Below, piece after piece: positions 5,781 to 58,119 of a stretch of DNA of 64,000 nt. The DNA is taken from NCBI GenBank assembly GCA_951406725.2, contig OX597814.1:43772001-43836000 (forward strand). The letters run 5' to 3'. How positions within the stretch are numbered: the first letter of the stretch is position 1; each line of letters begins with the position of its first letter. The position numbers and the translations under genes are program-made. Below the pieces are notes generated by a model. The model worked only from the letters and a program-made list of their open reading frames with translations, was not told the DNA's origin and did no database searches. The stretch comes from Octopus vulgaris. Its lineage: Eukaryota.

Positions 5781-7090
5781 TACTATTCCTGGACATTCTA
5801 ATCATCAAAACAGACGAAAACATTGTAACAGACATTATATTACCAACCAACACATTCTAAGCAATACCTATTGTCTTCCTCATCTAATCCCAAACACACA
5901 AAAGTAATATTCCTTTTAATCTATCAAGTAGAATCTTCACAACTGTTTCAAAAATAATAAAAGACTACAGGAATTAAAACAAATACTAGTCGAGAGAAAA
6001 TATCCGTCAATATCCATAGTCACCAGAATAGATCGTGTCAAAGCAATAGACATTTCAGAATTGTGTAAAACAAAGAAAAAATAACACTTCAAATAAACCC
6101 CCATACTCTACCCTTTATTACATCACACAACTGAAAAAAATCGCAGACGTTGACATTATCCACCAAATAATTCCACTACTGAGACAAGACCCATGAATGA
6201 AACAATCACTCGAATACACAAAATAATTAAAATCACAAGACACTCAAAATCCTTCAGGAAACTACTGACTAGTGTTAAATTAATCTCCAAAGACTCCACC
6301 TCATAAGTCAAAAAGTGTGGCCACCCAAACTAAGGGATTTGCATCAACCTCATTAAAGATACTCTTTTATTTGTTTCAGTCATTTGACTGCGGCCATGCT
6401 GGAGCACAGCATTTAGTCGACCCCAGGACTTATTCTTTGCAAGCCTAGTACTTATTCTATCGGTCTCTTTTGCCGAACCGCTAATTTACAGGGACGTAAA
6501 CACACCACCATCAGTTGTCAAGCGATGTTGGGGACACAAACATATACACACACATACATATATACGACAGGCTTCTTACAGTTTCCATCTAGCAACGATT
6601 TGGTCGGCCCCCTAGGCTATAGTAGAAGACACTTGCCCAAGGTACCATGCAGTGGGAATGTACCCGGAACCATGTGGTTGGTAAGCAAGCTACTTACCAC
6701 ACAGCCTACTTACACTCTTCACTTACACTCCTGCGCCTATAGATAATAAATATAAATATAAAGATAATGCATATAAATTTAAACCAGGATATATTTTTAC
6801 CATAAGTCATCTTCCTTGTGTGTCAAAAAATTTAATATATGCTATTAAATGTAAAAATTGTAAAGTGGATTACATAGGCCAAGTGATACTCTCGCTTAGA
6901 AACAGACACAAAATACAGGATCCCAGCACTACACATATACCACTACGTAGAAACATCGTCATATGTGCAGAAATAAGACGCCCAAATTCCAAGTTTTCCA
7001 CTTAACTTTTGTTCAGTCAATACCGGAGACCAAGGTCGTATAAACAATGAAAATATATTCATACACAAACGGAAATCAAGACTGAATAAA
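5781..7090 (+). mobile_element. Penelope-like element relic (Neptune-like): RT thumb, Cys-rich linker, GIY-YIG endonuclease
   Basis: Frameshifted blocks: LFLDILIIK..IVTDI, HSKQYLLSSSSNPKHTK, NIPFNLSSRIFTTVS, RLQELKQILVERKYP. Linker KCGHPN*GICINL at ~6312; CVSKNLIYAIKCKNCKVDYIGQ at ~6817; terminal NENIFIHKRKSRLN. Interrupted by a SINE at 6361-6740. Confidence 0.85.
6361..6740 (-). mobile_element. SINE family A inserted into the PLE
   Basis: Homologous over its whole length to 711-1110. Confidence 0.9.
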
Positions 7091-24329: not shown

Positions 24330-25181
24330 AAAATAATGGTGTCAGATCACAAATTGTTGATGCAACACTAAAGACATCATAACTGTGGAAGTAGTGGAGC
24401 TGACAACCAATCTAAGACTTCTTGCAGAAGGGCATACTGATGAAAGAGAGTTTGCTAACTACCTTCTTGATGTAGGAAATGGTAACATTTCTGTTGAACA
24501 AAGCGTCGGTGAATTCAAAATTAAACTACCCAAACATCTTTACCTTGAAAGTGGTACTTATTCAGTTCTATGAGATTTTGTATATAACTTCACAAACCCT
24601 GCGCGGCTTGAAAATAGAACCATTGCTATTCCAAAAAATGAAGCAGCAGAATTTGTGAATGATTTTCTGTTGACCAGAATCCTTGGTGAGCTAAAGATAT
24701 ACAGAACCTCAGATGCAGTTGATAAGGAAACTGTACCTAATCGAGTTCATCCACAAACCTTCACCATCAGAGTTTTCTTCCAGACATTCCCAAATTGAAG
24801 AAATAATGCTGCATAATTCTTGAGAAATTTAGATGCTACTAATGGACATTACAATGGAACGCACTACATCATTGTCAGTTTATAGGATCATGTTACTGAG
24901 GGGGGGTTGCTTCTGGTCCTTAAACAGGTCCAACTCTGCTAATCCCAAGAATACCACATGTACCTCAAGAAAATGAATTTCCATTCACATTTACACGTAA
25001 ACAATTATAGGCGCAGGAGTGGCTGTGTGGTAAGTAGCTTGTTTACCAACCACATGGTTCCGGGTTCAGTCCCACTGCATGGCACCTTGGGCAAGTGTCT
25101 TCTACTATAGTCTCGGGCCGACCAAAGCCTTGTGAGTGGATTTGGTAGACGAAAACTGAAAGAAGCCTGTCGTATATATGC

Positions 25182-27110: not shown

Positions 27111-27374
27111 TTCAAATGACTTCGCCAGCTAGTGCTGAAAAAATTTATTACATTAGCATTGGTTCCCAGTAAAACAAAGCACCATGAGGTTAAATTATAA
27201 ATAACTTTTACACTGTTCTCGGTCCGTTTCAAACGAGTATATACTGGTATTGATGTAACGATATTTGAGATTCTATCGAGGTAAATCTAGCCGATGAGAA
27301 CTAATCAAATTTACGGTAAAGCAACTTAATTTTTAAAGTTCTAAATATATATATATGTATGTATATATATATAA

Positions 27375-27405
<31 letters not shown>

Positions 27406-27539
27406 TATATTATATTGAGGGTACTACTATTCGTAGATACCAACACGCTAAGAGGGACTAATGCGGTCAAAACTACTAAAAATAAACAAAATTTTACCGA
27501 ATGCAAAACTTCAAAACACATCATTTTAAAAAGAATTCA

Positions 27540-27603
27540 GTTACATATCACATGTGATTTCGCATTTAATGCAGAATATGCATTTCATGTTCGTCAGTGC
27601 AAC
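27540..27603 (-). ncRNA. Type I hammerhead ribozyme motif (left arm)
   Basis: Reverse complement of 28148-28211. Confidence 0.75.
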
Positions 27604-28147
27604 AAACTCAAGAAATATAAGAAAAAACATAACATAACAAACTCGATTGCCAACCGTAGAATTCGTCGTAGCTTGTACGAATGTTTATCCTTACATATCT
27701 ATGAAAATGGCGGGCTTTTTCGCAATGCATTTCGGTACAAATTGCCAATTCGGAATAAAAATTCAGTATTGAACTATTCCGGTGAAAAATATAAATTAAC
27801 AATTGAGGATAAAATCTTTAAAAGAAATTATCAGTAGTCAGCGTGAAAAACCTCGTAAGAGAAAAAATCCGTAAATTCTTCCTCTTTGAAAATATTAATT
27901 TATATTTATAGACTACTGATAATTTCTTTTAAAGATTTTATCCTCAATTGTTAATTTATATTTTTCACCGGAATAGTTCAATACTGAATTTTTATTCCGA
28001 CTAGGCAATTTGGTACCGAAATGCATTGCGAAAAAGCCCGCCATTTTCATAGATATGTAAGGATAAACATTCGTACAAGCTACGACGAATTCTACGGTTG
28101 GCTATCGAGTTTGTAATGTTATGTTTTTTCTTATATTTCTTGAGTTT

Positions 28148-28211
28148 GTTGCACTGACGAACATGAAATGCATATTCTGCATTAAATGCGAAATCACATG
28201 TGATATGTAAC
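28148..28211 (+). ncRNA. Type I hammerhead ribozyme motif (right arm)
   Basis: gttgca CTGACGA acatgaaatgcatattctgcattaaatgc GAAA tcacatgtga TA tgtaac. Stem I is gttgca/tgtaac, the core is intact, stem III is the 12-nt palindrome ATCACATGTGAT and the triplet is AUA. Confidence 0.75.
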
Positions 28212-28446
28212 TGAATTCTTTTTAAAATGATGTGTTTTGAAGTTTTGCATTCGGTAAATTTTTGTTTATTTTTAGTAGTTTTGACCGCATTGGTCCCTCT
28301 TAGCGTGTTGGTATCTACGAATAGTAGTACCCTCAATATAATATAAATGAATATTTTCAAAGAGGAAGAATTTACGGATTTTTTCTCTTACGAGGTTTTC
28401 ACGCTGACTACTGATAATTTCTTTTAAAGATTTTATCCTCAATTGT

Positions 28447-28491
<45 letters not shown>

Positions 28492-35878: not shown

Positions 35879-36376
35879 CATGTTCTCTAATCTGCAAGCT
35901 TCGATGCAGATAATTATTTTCTGCAGAATCATTTCCGGCTTCGGCGCGCCAAAACGAATATATCTCCAAATATAATTTAGTTAGTTAGTTAGTTAGTTAA
36001 TGTTTTGGCTCAAAAAGCAAAAAGCAAGGCTATGTAGGGGGACATGGAGTTATGTACAGGGTGGTGTTCATGTAAAGAATTCTGGCCATTTGAGGTCAAG
36101 GGAGACTTTGAACCGAGCGGTCGTCGGCATCTTCACCATCTCGTCTGGCAGCTTATTCCACGGATCCGCAACCCGGACGGAGAAAGCCCCTCTCCTTCGA
36201 TTGAGATGAAATCGTCGCAGATAGAGCTTTTCGGAATGACCCCGCAGCCGACGCTCTGGAGCGGGAGTGAAGAACAGCTCTTTCGAGACGTTACACTTTC
36301 CGCTTATGATGTTGTGAGCAAGAATGAGATCACCACGGCGTCGTCGTTTTTCTAGAGAATAAAGGTCGAACTTTTT

Positions 36377-37336
36377 TCAGCCTTTCTTCATAACTTGAGC
36401 GACCAGTTTGCCATCGTCGGCAAATAGAAGGGTGTGTTGCGTGAGGTCGTCGGGCAAGTCATTTATGAAGACTAAGAAAAATAAGGACCCAAGCACTGAA
36501 CCTTGAGGCACGCCACTGCTCGCACTGGAGACGTCGGACCGCGAATCATTAACTTGGACTTGGAAGGAGCGATCTGAGTGGAAGGCACCAACCCATCGTA
36601 CAACATCCAAATGGAAACTATATGCTTGAAGCTTGACAAGTAATAGGCGGTGGTTTACCGAGTCAAAAGCTTTGGCAAAGTCCAATAAAACAATGTCAAC
36701 AGCATCACTATCATCGAGGATGCGCGTCACCAATTCTTCCATTACCAGTAAGTTGGTCAAGCACGATCTCTTCGGCACGAAGCCGTGTTGGAAATCAGAG
36801 ATAGAGGCTGTGTTTTGGAGGTGGAGCATCATACTTTTCTTAAGGATGGTTTCGAATATCTTGCTGATTATTGATGTAAGGGAAACCGGTCGGTTGTTAA
36901 GCGGATCATCGCGGCTCCCTTTCTTGAAAATTGGGCTGATTATCGCTGTTCTCCAGTCCACAGGTATAACACCTGTCGCCAATGACATATTGAATAGACG
37001 TGTTAAGGACTCGCTGATGACCGGAGCCAACACTTTGATAACCCGTGGGTGTATGCCGTTAGGGCCGTGACCCTTGTTGACATCGAGGCCTTGAATAACG
37101 CGTTCGACTTCGTCCCGCGTGATGACCAATCGAAGCATTGGTGGTACCGATCTATCAAATGGAGGGGGTTCACGACCATCATCTTGTTTGAAAATAGTTG
37201 AAAAAGCAGCCTCGGCAAATAATTGACTCTGTTGATAAGGGTCCTCAATCATTAGTGGGTAGAATATCGCTGGATGGTTTGAGATCAGATTTAACATACA
37301 CAGCAACACCTCCACCTCGCCTTTTTTCTCTGTCAC
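36377..37336 (-). pseudogene. CR1 ORF2 reverse transcriptase (partial, fused to APE by deletion)
   Basis: KGHGPNGIHPRVIK, PIFKKGSR..NNRPVSLTS, QHGFVPKRSCLTNL, LDFAKAFDSVNH, GVPQGSVLG, LFADD. Confidence 0.95.
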
Positions 37337-37500
37337 ATCTGAAGAGAGCGTAGCTCTGTAGGTGGATTTCTGAGTCCTTTACTGCTGGAGTCAGCCAAGT
37401 CTCAGTGATAGCTATCACATCAGGGGAATCACGCATGGCTAGTGTAAATAGTTCGCTGGAAATAAGGAGCACGAGTTGGTATAAACGATGCTGAGCTGTG
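37245..37500 (-). pseudogene. CR1 ORF2 APE endonuclease N-terminal fragment
   Basis: PDVIAITETWL...YALFRCDREKRRGGGVAVYVK. Confidence 0.9.
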
Positions 37501-39792: not shown

Positions 39793-41230
39793 TATTATAT
39801 CAGTTAACAAGGCTACTAATGGTTACATCTAAAAAGAAAGGAATCTGTTAACAGTTAACTAGTTTACCGCGTGGGAACGTCGTTATTGGTTTACATTTTG
39901 AACGGACGCAAACAGACGGAAGAGTTTCATCTGATTGCGTCTATAGTTCAAATTCTCATAAGTATTGAGTTGATGTAATCGACTAGTCCTCTCCTCTGAA
40001 AACCTCTGGCCTTCACGCGCAACTATACTTCTGCCACGCCACCTTAACTATATGCACAGTAAACGTTTTCCATAATTGACATCTGATTCTCGAATTTAAT
40101 TGTTTTACTGTTTATAGGAGATGCACTATTGGATATCTAAAGATCATATTTCTATTGCACCTATTCAAGTGATCGCTATAATTGAACTGAAAGGCCGGCC
40201 TGAATATATTTCTTGAAGAAATGATTTTATTAGATCTGCGATAAGGTTCATTTTATAGAGTTACCACTATCATCCGTTCAATGTTTCGGTTAACGTTAGG
40301 TAAATTAGGAAAGAATTTATGAAACATGTACAGACTATATCACTTCGATATTCACATCTTATAATAATTCTGCTTGTCATTGCGTTAAATAGCCAGTCGG
40401 TAATGCTTTCACGGGACTAGAGAAATAGAGAAAATAAAGAAAACAGAGAGAGAGGAAAACGGGGGGAAAGGAGAGTGTGAGAAGTGTCCATGAGAGAGGG
40501 ACACAGAAAAAAGAGGATGAGGTGAAGAGTGAGATAGAAAAAGGGAAATAGAAACAGAGCGACAGACGTTAGAGAGAGAAAGGAGGGATAGAAAAAGGGG
40601 AAAGAGAAGCGGGTGAGAGACAGGAAGGAGAGAGTGGAGGGAAATAGAGGAGGGAGAGAGAGATGAGCGAGTCAGATGAGGGAAAGGGAATGGGGAAAGA
40701 TAGATGATGATGTTGTTGTTTTTGTTTGTGGAGGTGTTGGCGGTGATTGGACAGTGGAAAGGGTATTTTTGAAAAGTTTTTTTTATATCACCTATCACTT
40801 GACGCATTCGCATAATTGCAAGTCCGTGAAATGTTCACGCTCATTTACGTGGCAGATATATGCCGTTTAACCAAACGTTGTATCATACGTACGGGATATT
40901 CTTTTGTTTTTCTGGAGGAAATAGAAAAATAAGAGTGAATATTTGTTTCATTAGTGCCGTGTATTAAGTCTATAGAATTGTGCTTACGTATATAGAGTAT
41001 ATATATATATATATATATATATATTTGAGTAATTGAATGAATTATCTTATTAAGGATAATTCGAAAGATAACCGATACCTGGGTAGCAAATTCACATCAG
41101 AAAGAACACGGTTGAAGCTACGTCCCTAGGGTATAGACTACGTGTCTTCGTGCGGAAATTTGTATGTTTATTTTAAAATTATAAGTATATGAAAGAATGG
41201 AGTTGAACGACTAGTTAACAAATATCCTTT

Positions 41231-41315
41231 ATTCTCGACATATGTTTCGAAGGCTGCATATTCCTAATTCCGAGGGAATAAAGAGTACATTATGCAGATT
41301 TCTCATCAGGAAAAT
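41231..41315 (-). ncRNA. Type I hammerhead ribozyme motif (left arm)
   Basis: Reverse complement of 42657-42741; core intact. Confidence 0.8.
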
Positions 41316-42656
41316 CAAGGAACTTATGTCGACATCAAAATGCACAAAAACTTTTAGCTGACCGCTCTCAAGGAGCCCATGGCGATAATGAGTGTCTCTT
41401 TATAATGAGTGACGTCAGAGTGGCTGAATGTAGAAGAATCTAGAAGTTTCTACAGGTTTAAGAGTTCAAACGAAGTAGGAGGAGGGAGGCATAAGAATAG
41501 TAAGGTGAGAGAGTGCAGGTCAAAAGAATGGTGGGTTTAAATGATTTCTTCTGTGGATGAGTGCCTGTGTGTGAGACTGTACATAACTGTCTTAATGTGT
41601 GTATGTGTGTGTCTGAATGCGTGATTGTGTTTGTGGATGGGTAGATGTCAGAAAACTGACAGCTGTGAGTTGAAAGCTCTGTATCTGTGTGTTCGATTAT
41701 GTTTACTGTAGGGAAAAGAAAGTAGATAGCGAAAGGGAGAAAGAATCGGGCGAGGTGAGTGGCAACGCAAGAATGGATAGTAGTAATTGGGAATATAAGA
41801 AAATCTTTTTTGACTATTGGGGTGAAATATAGAAAAAAATCTTTTTTTTTTAATTTAAAAAAATTTTTTGGGGAAATCGAGGGGTTATCTATATTAGTCA
41901 CTATTTATATGAATGAAAGGTGTGTCTTTTCCAGTGTAAGCACCTGTAGGATCTTTCGACGATTGTGTTTATTAAATAGCCTTTGGCGAACAAAGGCCTT
42001 TTAATAAACACAATCGTCGAAAGATACTACAGGTGCTTACACTGGAAAACACACACCTTTCATTCATATAAATAGTGACTAATATAGATAACCCCTCGAT
42101 TTCCCCCCCCCAATTTTTTTTTTTTTTAATAATTTTTTCTATATTTCACCCCAATAATCAAAAAAGATTTTCTTATATTCCCAATTACTACTATCCATTC
42201 TTGCGTTGCCTCTCACCCCGCCCGATTCTTTCTCCCTTTCGCTATCTACTTTCCTTTCCCTACAGTAAACATAATCGAACACACAGATACAGAGCTTTCA
42301 ACTCACAGCTGTCAGTTTTCTGACATCTACCCATCCACAAACACAATCACGCATTCAGACACACACATACACACATTAAGACAGTTATATACAGTCTCAC
42401 ACACAGGCACTCATTCACAAAAGAAATCATTTAAACCCACCATTCTTTTGACCTGCACTCTCTCACCTTACTATTCTTATGCCTCCCTCCTCCTACTACG
42501 TTTGAACTCTTGAACCTTTAGAAACTTCTAGATTCTTCTACATTCAGCCACTCTGACGTTACTCATTATAAAGAGACACTCATTATCGCCATGGGCTCCT
42601 TGAGAGCGGTCAGCTAAAAGATTTTTGTGCATTTCGATGTCGACATAAGTTCTTTG

Positions 42657-42741
42657 ATTTTCCTGATGAGAAATCTGCATAATGTACTCCTTATTCCTTC
42701 GGAATTAGGAATATGCAGCCTTCGAAACATATGTCGAGAAT
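42657..42741 (+). ncRNA. Type I hammerhead ribozyme motif (right arm)
   Basis: attttc CTGATGA g aaat ctgcat...attcc ttc ggaat...atgcag cctt c GAAA catatg TC gagaat. Stem I is attttc/gagaat, stem II is extended, stem III is the palindrome ACATATGT, the triplet is GUC, and AATAAA follows immediately. Confidence 0.8.
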
Positions 42742-42786
42742 AAAGGATATTTGTTAACTAGTCGTTCAACTCCATTCTTTCATATA

Positions 42787-42910
<124 letters not shown>

Positions 42911-56590: not shown

Positions 56591-58119
56591 ATCATCATCA
56601 TCATCATCGTTTAACGTCCGTTTTCCGCGCTAGCACGGGTTGGACGGTTCGACCGGGGTCTGGGAAGCCAGGGGCTGCACCAGGCTCCAGTCTGATCTGG
56701 CAGTGTTTCTACAGCTGGATGCCCTTCCTAACGCCAACCACTCCGCGAGTGTAGTGGGTGCTTTTTGCGTGCCACCTGCACAGGTGCCAGGGGGTTCTGG
56801 CATCGGCCACGATCGGTTGGTGCTTTTAACGTGTCACCGGCACGGAAGCCAGCCAAGGCGGCGCTGGCATCGGCCACGTTCGGATGGTGCTTTTTATGTG
56901 CCACCGGCACAGAAGCCAGTCGAGGCGGCGCTAGCATCGGCCACGTTCGGATGGTGCTTTTTATGTGCCACCGGCACAGAAGCCAGTCGAGGCGGCGCTG
57001 ACAACGGCCACGTTCGGATGGTGCTTTTTATGTGCCACAGGTATCACAACTACTATTTCCATTGATATTTGTTTCGATGTTCATGTACATGCACTTGACT
57101 CAACAGGTCTCTACAAGCACAGCGAGATGTTCTGGGATCCGAGGTACTTTGAATGGGCAGGGGCTATGCGGAACTGGTGCCGGAAGCATCCCGGGTCTTT
57201 GCAGTCACAGCACATCTCCAGAGATCTCGGTCCTTCGCCATTGCCTCAGTGAGGCCCAACGCTCTGAGGTCATGCTTGACTACCTCATCCCATGTCTTCC
57301 TGGGTCTACCTCTCCCCCTGATTCCTTCAACTGTTTGGGAGCGGCACTTCTTCACACATCTCTCCTCATCCATCCGCAGTACATGACCATACCATCGCAA
57401 GCGTCGCTCTTGCACACCGCATCTGATGCTTCTTATGTCTAGCATTTCTCTCAGGGCGCTTACACTCTGTCGTGCATTCACACTGACATTACACATCCAG
57501 CGGATCATGCTAGCTTCATTTCTTTCAAGTCTACGCATGACCTCTGCAGTCACGGCCCATGTTTCACTACCGTGAAGCATGGCAGTTCGCACACATGCAT
57601 CATACAATCTACCTTTCACTCTGAGTGAGAGACCCTTTGTCGCCTGTAGGGGTAGGAGCTTTCTACACTTTGCCCAGGCTATTCGTATTCTAGTGGTGAC
57701 ACTCTCTGAGCATCCACCTCCACTACTATCTTGGTCACCCAGGTAGCGGAAACTATCAACTACTTCTAGTGTTTTCCCTGGAGTGTGATGGGCTCTGTTT
57801 TCTGAGTATTTGTGGTGTCTACTGTCCCTGTGCATCTGCCGCACATGAAAGCTATCTTATCAGTTAATTTCCCTTTGATGTTGCTGCACCTCTTATGCGT
57901 CCATAGCTTACACTGGGTGCATCTTATGGAGTTTCTACCTACACCTTTCCTACAGATCGAGCAGGGCCACCTGCCCGATGGGGTGTGTGCTGAGTTCGCC
58001 TTTCTGCTTACTATAACTTTGGTCTTCGCTACATTTACTCTAAGGCCCTTTGATTCTAACCCTTGTTTTCTAGTTCCGGTAGTGATTCTGCTGTGAGAGC
58101 CAGGTCATCAGCATAGAGC
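56591..58119 (-). mobile_element. 5'-truncated RTE LINE with (ATG)n tail, inserted in the Helitron
   Basis: It begins at LYADDLAL (58119 side). ORF 57164-57844 has VDSFRYLGD, RIRIAWAK, LHGSETW, RRLRWYGHVLRM, RGRGRPRKTW and DRDLWR. The (CAT)n tract on + is at 56591-56608. Confidence 0.93.
56757..57040. repeat. 67-bp GC-rich minisatellite (~4 copies) in the RTE 3' UTR
   Basis: tggtgctttt recurs at 56818, 56885, 56952 and 57019. Confidence 0.9.

Follow-up and report, generated by a model that had tools for sequence, protein, structure and literature searches.

Introduction

Metazoan non-LTR retrozymes are described as non-coding tandem units of a few hundred nucleotides, each carrying one type I hammerhead ribozyme, with low GC content and a self-paired predicted circle, in genomes where Penelope-like elements (PLEs) co-exist (Cervera and de la Pena 2020, PMC7229834; Li, Clavereau and Pollet 2026, bioRxiv 10.64898/2026.07.22.740005). 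Unit lengths of 150-450 nt are given in the former and of 51-972 nt in the latter, and the units lie in long arrays. The action of PLE reverse transcriptases on circular RNA has been proposed for the entry of animal retrozymes (PMC7229834), to which the later work adds phylogenetic kinship of retrozymes to pseudo-LTRs; one of nine tested dimers cleaved (bioRxiv 10.64898/2026.07.22.740005).

EN+ PLEs show 5' truncation, partial tandems and head-to-head inversion, with a 'tail' of 30-40 nt on one arm only, (TA)n targets and a hammerhead upstream of two 3' ends (PMC8557442, PMC3846280, PMC11167929). In the literature these two fixed 3' ends are taken to mark where reverse transcription starts on either side of the tail. 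Both strands were cleaved and extended by a PLE protein in vitro, from two internal start sites that bound the tail; the protein is a predicted dimer, and hammerhead cleavage was not needed for insertion (PMC11167929). In Chlamydomonas, non-autonomous Chlamys PLEs such as MRC1 form pseudo-LTRs and multicopy head-to-tail insertions; their 3' sequence is generally also that of an autonomous family, and a canonical hammerhead is missing from most Chlamys (PMC8557442).

Here we analyse a locus at 27403-28449 of a 64,000-nt stretch of the Octopus vulgaris genome (the window; GCA_951406725.2, contig OX597814.1, 43,772,001-43,836,000). Its 495-nt unit (32% GC) shares the retrozyme properties listed above, its length lying above the earlier published range and within the later one. 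The sampled octopus copies, however, are dispersed insertions of 0.1-2.7 units rather than long arrays, and the circle is here a predicted one. The copies also have head-to-head arms and two fixed 3' ends, of which we found no description in the available portions of either retrozyme paper. These are features of EN+ PLEs, from which the unit differs in having no reverse transcriptase (RT)/GIY-YIG ORF, in having no coding relative among the sampled loci, and in a tail of 101 nt. Unlike most Chlamys it has a hammerhead, and no partner sharing its 3' sequence was found in our sample. The family is new and its kind is known, namely a non-LTR retrozyme or non-autonomous PLE, and the layout is published PLE architecture.

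Results

The locus is built from two arms of one unit between (TA)n tracts (Table 1). A sequence-only reading had described the right arm as a 495-bp monomer with a 44-bp terminal redundancy, and the left arm as the same monomer in another permutation on the opposite strand, with TA tracts at both 3' ends and, in each arm, one hammerhead with a 12-nt palindromic stem III. All of these held. The 44-nt direct repeat (27911-27954 = 28406-28449) is 100% identical at a spacing of 495, and the reverse complement of the left arm matches a doubled unit at 500/511 positions with 2 gaps, running from unit position 430 once round to the 3' end. The last few columns of that alignment enter the TA tract, and the exact match stops at 27403, which is unit position 438. 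The two arms are ~98% identical and carry the same haplotype at 14/14 diagnostic sites (locus L001). The segment 27403-28449 is a young, genuine insertion with head-to-head arms of the 495-nt unit.

Table 1 Features of the locus and of the comparison element, in window coordinates
Feature	Position	Strand	Basis
(TA)n target tract, 3' of left arm	27345..27402		sequence
Left arm: one unit + 9 nt (unit positions 430-438 of next unit), 3' end = start site B, 5'-truncated	27403..27906	-	alignment
Type I hammerhead, left arm; palindromic stem III 27547-27558, cleavage predicted after 27546	27540..27603 (motif mirrored at 27603)	-	motif scan, inner positions from sequence
Head-to-head junction TATA, 4 nt, linking 5' ends of both arms	27907..27910		sequence
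Right arm: 495-nt unit + 44 nt, 3' end = start site A, 5'-truncated	27911..28449	+	repeat, alignment
Type I hammerhead, right arm	28148..28211	+	motif scan, copy alignment, folding
Hammerhead parts: stem I; core CUGACGA; GAAA; palindromic stem III	28148-28153/28206-28211; 28154-28160; 28190-28193; 28193-28204	+	
Start site B (…CCTCAATATAATATAAAT)	28335..28348	+	fixed 3' end of 86/189 arms
101-nt 'tail' between sites B and A, with 13-bp hairpin and minor exact 5' end (unit position 483)	28349..28449	+	arm ends, folding
(TA)n target tract, 3' of right arm	28450..28489		sequence
Comparison element, separate family: 5'-truncated head-to-head 3' end of coding Hydra-type PLE	41026..42790		genomic copies

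The surveyed genome comprises 2.8 Gb in 227 contigs. A 30-nt core of the unit has 142 exact matches in it and its reversed control none, so the family is not a chance resemblance; paired core matches are spaced 494-497 nt. A looser hammerhead pattern matches 872 times (control 0), some of these matches belonging to unrelated families. Three subfamilies, at about 98%, 87% and 70-75% (~72%) identity, have the circular order of the unit in common. Arms longer than 555 nt are present at 24/66 hammerhead-anchored loci, the longest spanning 2.45 (L025) and 2.68 units (L282), although arm lengths are biased upward because loci were taken from the best 40 DNA hits, of 2061 first-look candidates in the unit search, and from the pattern matches listed first. 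As in retrozymes, head-to-tail units, at least two of them with hammerheads, occur (L004, L008, L025, L030 and L282), and the sense frames contain many stops. On the antisense side the unit has stop-free frames of 128-166 codons (window 27337-27837 on the plus and 28001-28387 on the minus strand), and some copies of the middle subfamily likewise have a long one; no Pfam match was returned for the frame of 166 codons. Two loci 67 kb apart (L182 and L183) are near-identical in insertion and flanks, representing a segmental duplication or an assembly duplicate.

Mapping the ends of genomic copies on the circular monomer, as the sequence-only reading had proposed, gave fixed 3' ends and scattered 5' ends. 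The survey covered 130 loci, reduced to 118 on dropping 12 duplicates, with arms below 79% identity set aside. Of the resulting 189 arms, 89 have their 3' end at site A (unit position 44), 86 have it at site B (~438) and 14 elsewhere. These are BLAST ends blurred by TA microhomology, so that A appears at 44-51 and B at 436-444. The 5' ends, by contrast, are found all round the unit. Sixty-four loci are inverted with tails outward, and 59 of them combine one A end with one B end, against a single A+A locus and four with one atypical end. The remainder comprises 53 single-arm loci, which use the same two ends, and one arranged otherwise. In the hammerhead-anchored subset (66 loci, one a near-duplicate), 40 of 44 inverted loci are A+B and none has the same end twice; the 3' flank is TA-rich for 93/115 arms. 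Inner junctions are near-symmetric (within 10 nt) at 9/59 two-segment loci, where 2.5 are expected. The family thus displays the PLE insertion signature of 5' truncation, partial tandem, inverted copy, one-arm tail and (TA)n target. Since 3' ends sit at A or B and 5' ends are spread, the two permutations at our locus amount to two fixed ends 101 nt apart plus truncation, and the 44-bp redundancy of the right arm is an incidental product of truncation that is not family-wide. The two permutations had also been taken to imply a tandem or circular template; the template does behave as such, with arms of up to ~2.7 units, seamless junctions and one haplotype per locus, but two arms alone are no proof of a circle.

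Template identity was followed at 14 diagnostic sites, each with a minor allele present at 6 or more of 91 loci (from 100 loci, after removal of 9 duplicates and of arms below 93%). The two arms of a locus mismatch at 7/343 comparisons and tandem units at 8/225, against 26064/100148 (26%) between different loci and a background of 1.0-1.3% at non-diagnostic sites. Therefore, each insertion derives from one haplotype. Arms stop at the predicted hammerhead cleavage site twice (2.6 expected) and pass it 157 times, so a cleaved linear monomer, for which 5' ends should pile up at this site, is not the template. A ligated circle and an uncleaved redundant linear RNA both fit the copies; we put the odds of a template that the hammerhead cleaved and ligated into a covalent circle at about even. 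The 5' ends of six arms from two subfamilies fall precisely on unit position 483 (window 28393, AGGTTTTTCACG), the 3' foot of a 13-bp hairpin; within 3 nt of it there are 7 stops (2.5 expected) and 154 passes. This position may be a transcription start or a site where the reverse transcriptase stalls at the hairpin foot. Four contig sets, from runs guessed to be RNA, cover the unit and its head-to-tail joint, which is also present in genomic copies; such sets are blind to strand, ends and circularity, and no RNA holder of the 495-nt unit is on record.

The right-arm hammerhead has stem I GUUGCA/UGUAAC, an A.C mismatch at the base of stem II and the stem III palindrome ATCACATGTGAT, two strands of which are predicted to pair at -15.8 kcal/mol; cleavage is predicted after A28205. 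Rfam returned no match to it, and scanning the 64-kb window gave one further weak candidate, at 24431. Across 18 chosen copies from young and old subfamilies, pairing is kept in 93.6% of pair cells, compared with 17-44% in slid controls. Three stem II pairs are altered on both sides between subfamilies, and the four pairs of stem III are invariant. Because essentially two lineages are compared, the stem II covariation counts as 3 events and not 20. By this pairing pattern the predicted hammerhead is conserved as a structure across the subfamilies. Core position 7 is C, U, A or G among copies, and the bases facing each other at the foot of stem II differ by subfamily: A.C (young), G-C (middle) and U.U (old); cleavage may be weak given the young and old pairs. 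Folded by itself, the hammerhead scores no better than shuffled sequence (z -0.11), and the whole unit folds at z -4.0 as a linear molecule. Folded as a circle, the units give z of -4.4 (young), -5.0 (middle) and -3.7 (old), and three control stretches -0.07 to -0.70 (25 shuffles each). The 495-nt unit thus has one type I hammerhead and a highly self-paired predicted circle, as retrozymes do.

No ORF with the RT and GIY-YIG domains of an autonomous EN+ PLE is present in the 495-nt element, and no coding PLE lies beside family copies at the loci examined, mostly with 1.5-kb flanks; what stands upstream of the unit at sampled loci is more unit, TA or an inverted arm. A partner profile built from 17 natural copies was applied to Neptune-, Hydra- and Poseidon-type loci, again mostly with 1.5-kb flanks. 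In the PLE protein searches, first-look candidates numbered 9363, 16760 and 13565, and the best 150 of each were scored. Among 137 loci (643 kb) plus 30 more, chosen through PLE proteins or the 41-kb element, there was no coding PLE with the unit in it, and the profile hit only family copies within them (L073/L095, L202/L206, L293, L311). The supplement of PMC8557442 lists (TA)n-targeting Naiads in Octopus species. A pattern designed to reveal other sequence upstream of the unit (81 matches, 30 examined) yielded no shared ORF and mostly 87%-subfamily copies. Divergent hammerheads from the loose pattern (first 100 of 872 matches listed; 30 + 12 loci examined) belong to other families; PLE fragments occur at 2/45 divergent-hammerhead loci, and neither runs upstream into the element.

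Two apparent links to coding PLEs were set aside. At L073, a Neptune GIY-YIG relic is followed on its 3' side by an old copy; as this segment is a member of the old non-coding subfamily and the link is not repeated in 24 relatives (1.5-kb flanks), we read it as a nested insertion. The link to a Hydra relic is confined to one locus, L161, where the truncation point is unremarkable, and is likewise read as nested.

The genome also harbours a young Neptune-like PLE family (L081-L094, e.g. L086:734-4446), with an open RT/GIY-YIG frame of 775-876 codons in most loci, an overlapping ORF1 of 469-480 codons in four, and a 3' UTR made long by microsatellite sequence. The hammerhead of this family combines the variant core UUGACAA (U3-A8 replacing C3-G8) with a palindromic stem III.

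The 41-kb element provides a comparison within the window. As had been claimed, the 495-nt unit has no significant similarity to it by BLAST (the best hit is 23 nt at E 0.033). One arm of the 41-kb element has a long end and the other a short end, and its genomic copies (2092 first-look candidates) continue upstream into a frame that ends in a GIY-YIG domain, with RT further upstream. The protein has a DKT motif, an Asn/Ser-rich insert before the endonuclease, and, at its C terminus, a GIY-YIG domain with CxxC and CxH around conserved E and N; together with a canonical hammerhead and a (TA)n target, these are the features of the Hydra clade. Judged from motifs compared by eye with the clade description in PMC8557442, a coding Hydra-type PLE is what the element represents, by its 3' end. 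In this coding family 8/10 distinct inverted loci combine long and short ends, none has the same end twice, and the tail is about 154 nt. The architecture shared by the two elements had been thought to point to a general mechanism; since the 41-kb element is a Hydra-type PLE 3' end obeying the same two-end rule, it is instead known PLE biology, the published tandem, inverted and tail structure.

Discussion

We consider it very probable that the locus is an insertion of a non-coding 495-nt non-LTR retrozyme, a non-autonomous PLE likely mobilised in trans by a PLE, with both DNA ends primed on one re-read single-unit template. The unit would be transcribed, and a PLE protein would bind the RNA near the tail, its GIY-YIG endonuclease cutting both strands of (TA)n. 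One DNA end would then prime cDNA at site A and the other at site B, 101 nt apart on the RNA. Both cDNAs would run round the unit, re-reading the single-unit template until they stop, and the truncated products would be joined head-to-head via microhomology, symmetrically at some loci; a single arm would arise when only one DNA end is extended. The trans-acting enzyme would be a Penelope-like reverse transcriptase/GIY-YIG endonuclease, and the young Neptune-type PLEs with open 775-876-codon frames make such helpers plausible. The sequence-only reading had already suggested a retrozyme-like RNA copied by a PLE reverse transcriptase: the non-coding unit, the conserved hammerhead and the PLE insertion signature speak for it, while the failure to find a coding PLE sharing the unit at the sampled loci speaks against. 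Also on that side are the tail of 101 nt, which exceeds the published 30-40 nt although the coding Hydra-type family here has one of about 154 nt, the mismatched stem II bases, the unremarkable fold of the isolated hammerhead, and the published findings that insertion did not require cleavage (PMC11167929) and that one dimer in nine cleaved.

Within this mechanism the template could be a covalent circle made by the hammerhead or an uncleaved linear RNA, either terminally redundant or a homogeneous multimer. It is quite possible that it is linear, that is, an uncleaved multimer from a homogeneous locus or a redundant unit re-read by strand transfer, the hammerhead being dispensable for insertion. 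The six arms starting exactly at position 483, a candidate transcription start, fit such a template, as do the young tandem loci with 2-2.5 near-identical units and the in vitro insertion of hammerhead mutants (PMC11167929). The 154 passes through position 483, however, would demand a very efficient jump there, and at the 3' foot of a hairpin the enzyme may simply stall; moreover, the 6 tandem-unit discordances listed (of 8) each fall at a different site, and the hammerhead and whole-unit folding are conserved in three subfamilies. More tentatively, a PLE RT dimer may perform rolling-circle copying of a covalently closed 495-nt hammerhead RNA, with the two ends of a single double-strand cut as primers and a separate fixed site for each subunit, in a lineage that has lost recognisable kinship to the helper PLE. 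If so, retrotransposition templated by a circRNA would have left a direct record in an animal genome, in the form of these hundreds of copies.

Two further readings do without a retrozyme. The copies could be solo and tandem pseudo-LTRs shed by a coding PLE outside the sample, and so not propagate independently. The architecture fits PLE pseudo-LTRs, the genome holds many PLE families of which the best 150 per search were scored, and the old L073 copy does lie 3' of a Neptune relic. We nevertheless think this unlikely: the L073 link is not repeated within the 1.5-kb flanks of 24 relatives, the sampled loci share no upstream ORF even among 30 chosen to expose different upstream sequence, and the ~87% and ~72% subfamilies retain the whole circle. 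A far less probable origin is an assembly artefact, a DNA-level fold-back or a DNA transposon with terminal inverted repeats. The excess of near-symmetric junctions would suit fold-back at some loci, but the arms differ by ~2%, 64 loci share the layout with different inner junctions, 53 single-arm copies have the same two ends, and the outer ends A and B differ in sequence, unlike terminal inverted repeats.

What the family newly provides is an insertion footprint with PLE-type ends and a counted, near-strict rule of one A and one B end, together with evidence for the copying of a single template haplotype past the length of one unit. We found no report of this rule for a retrozyme, or of a cephalopod retrozyme, in a literature search that most subscription papers lay outside. 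The PLE mechanism is also sharpened, in that the two start sites used in vitro (PMC11167929) appear as one per DNA end, in non-coding and coding elements. A 495-nt RNA with mapped start sites offers a small substrate on which to test a circular against a linear template.

Other hammerhead families with similar ribozyme ends, several of them head-to-head or tandem, were encountered at L353-L358 and L365-L409. Among them, the L354 family is distantly related to the 495-nt unit (profile scores up to 49 bits); the sampled loci gave no linked ORF. Elsewhere in the window lie a GIY-YIG relic of a Neptune-type PLE (6685-7005, plus strand) and, from translations read by eye, two putative LINE-type reverse-transcriptase fragments (36068-37378 and 57164-58104, both on the minus strand).
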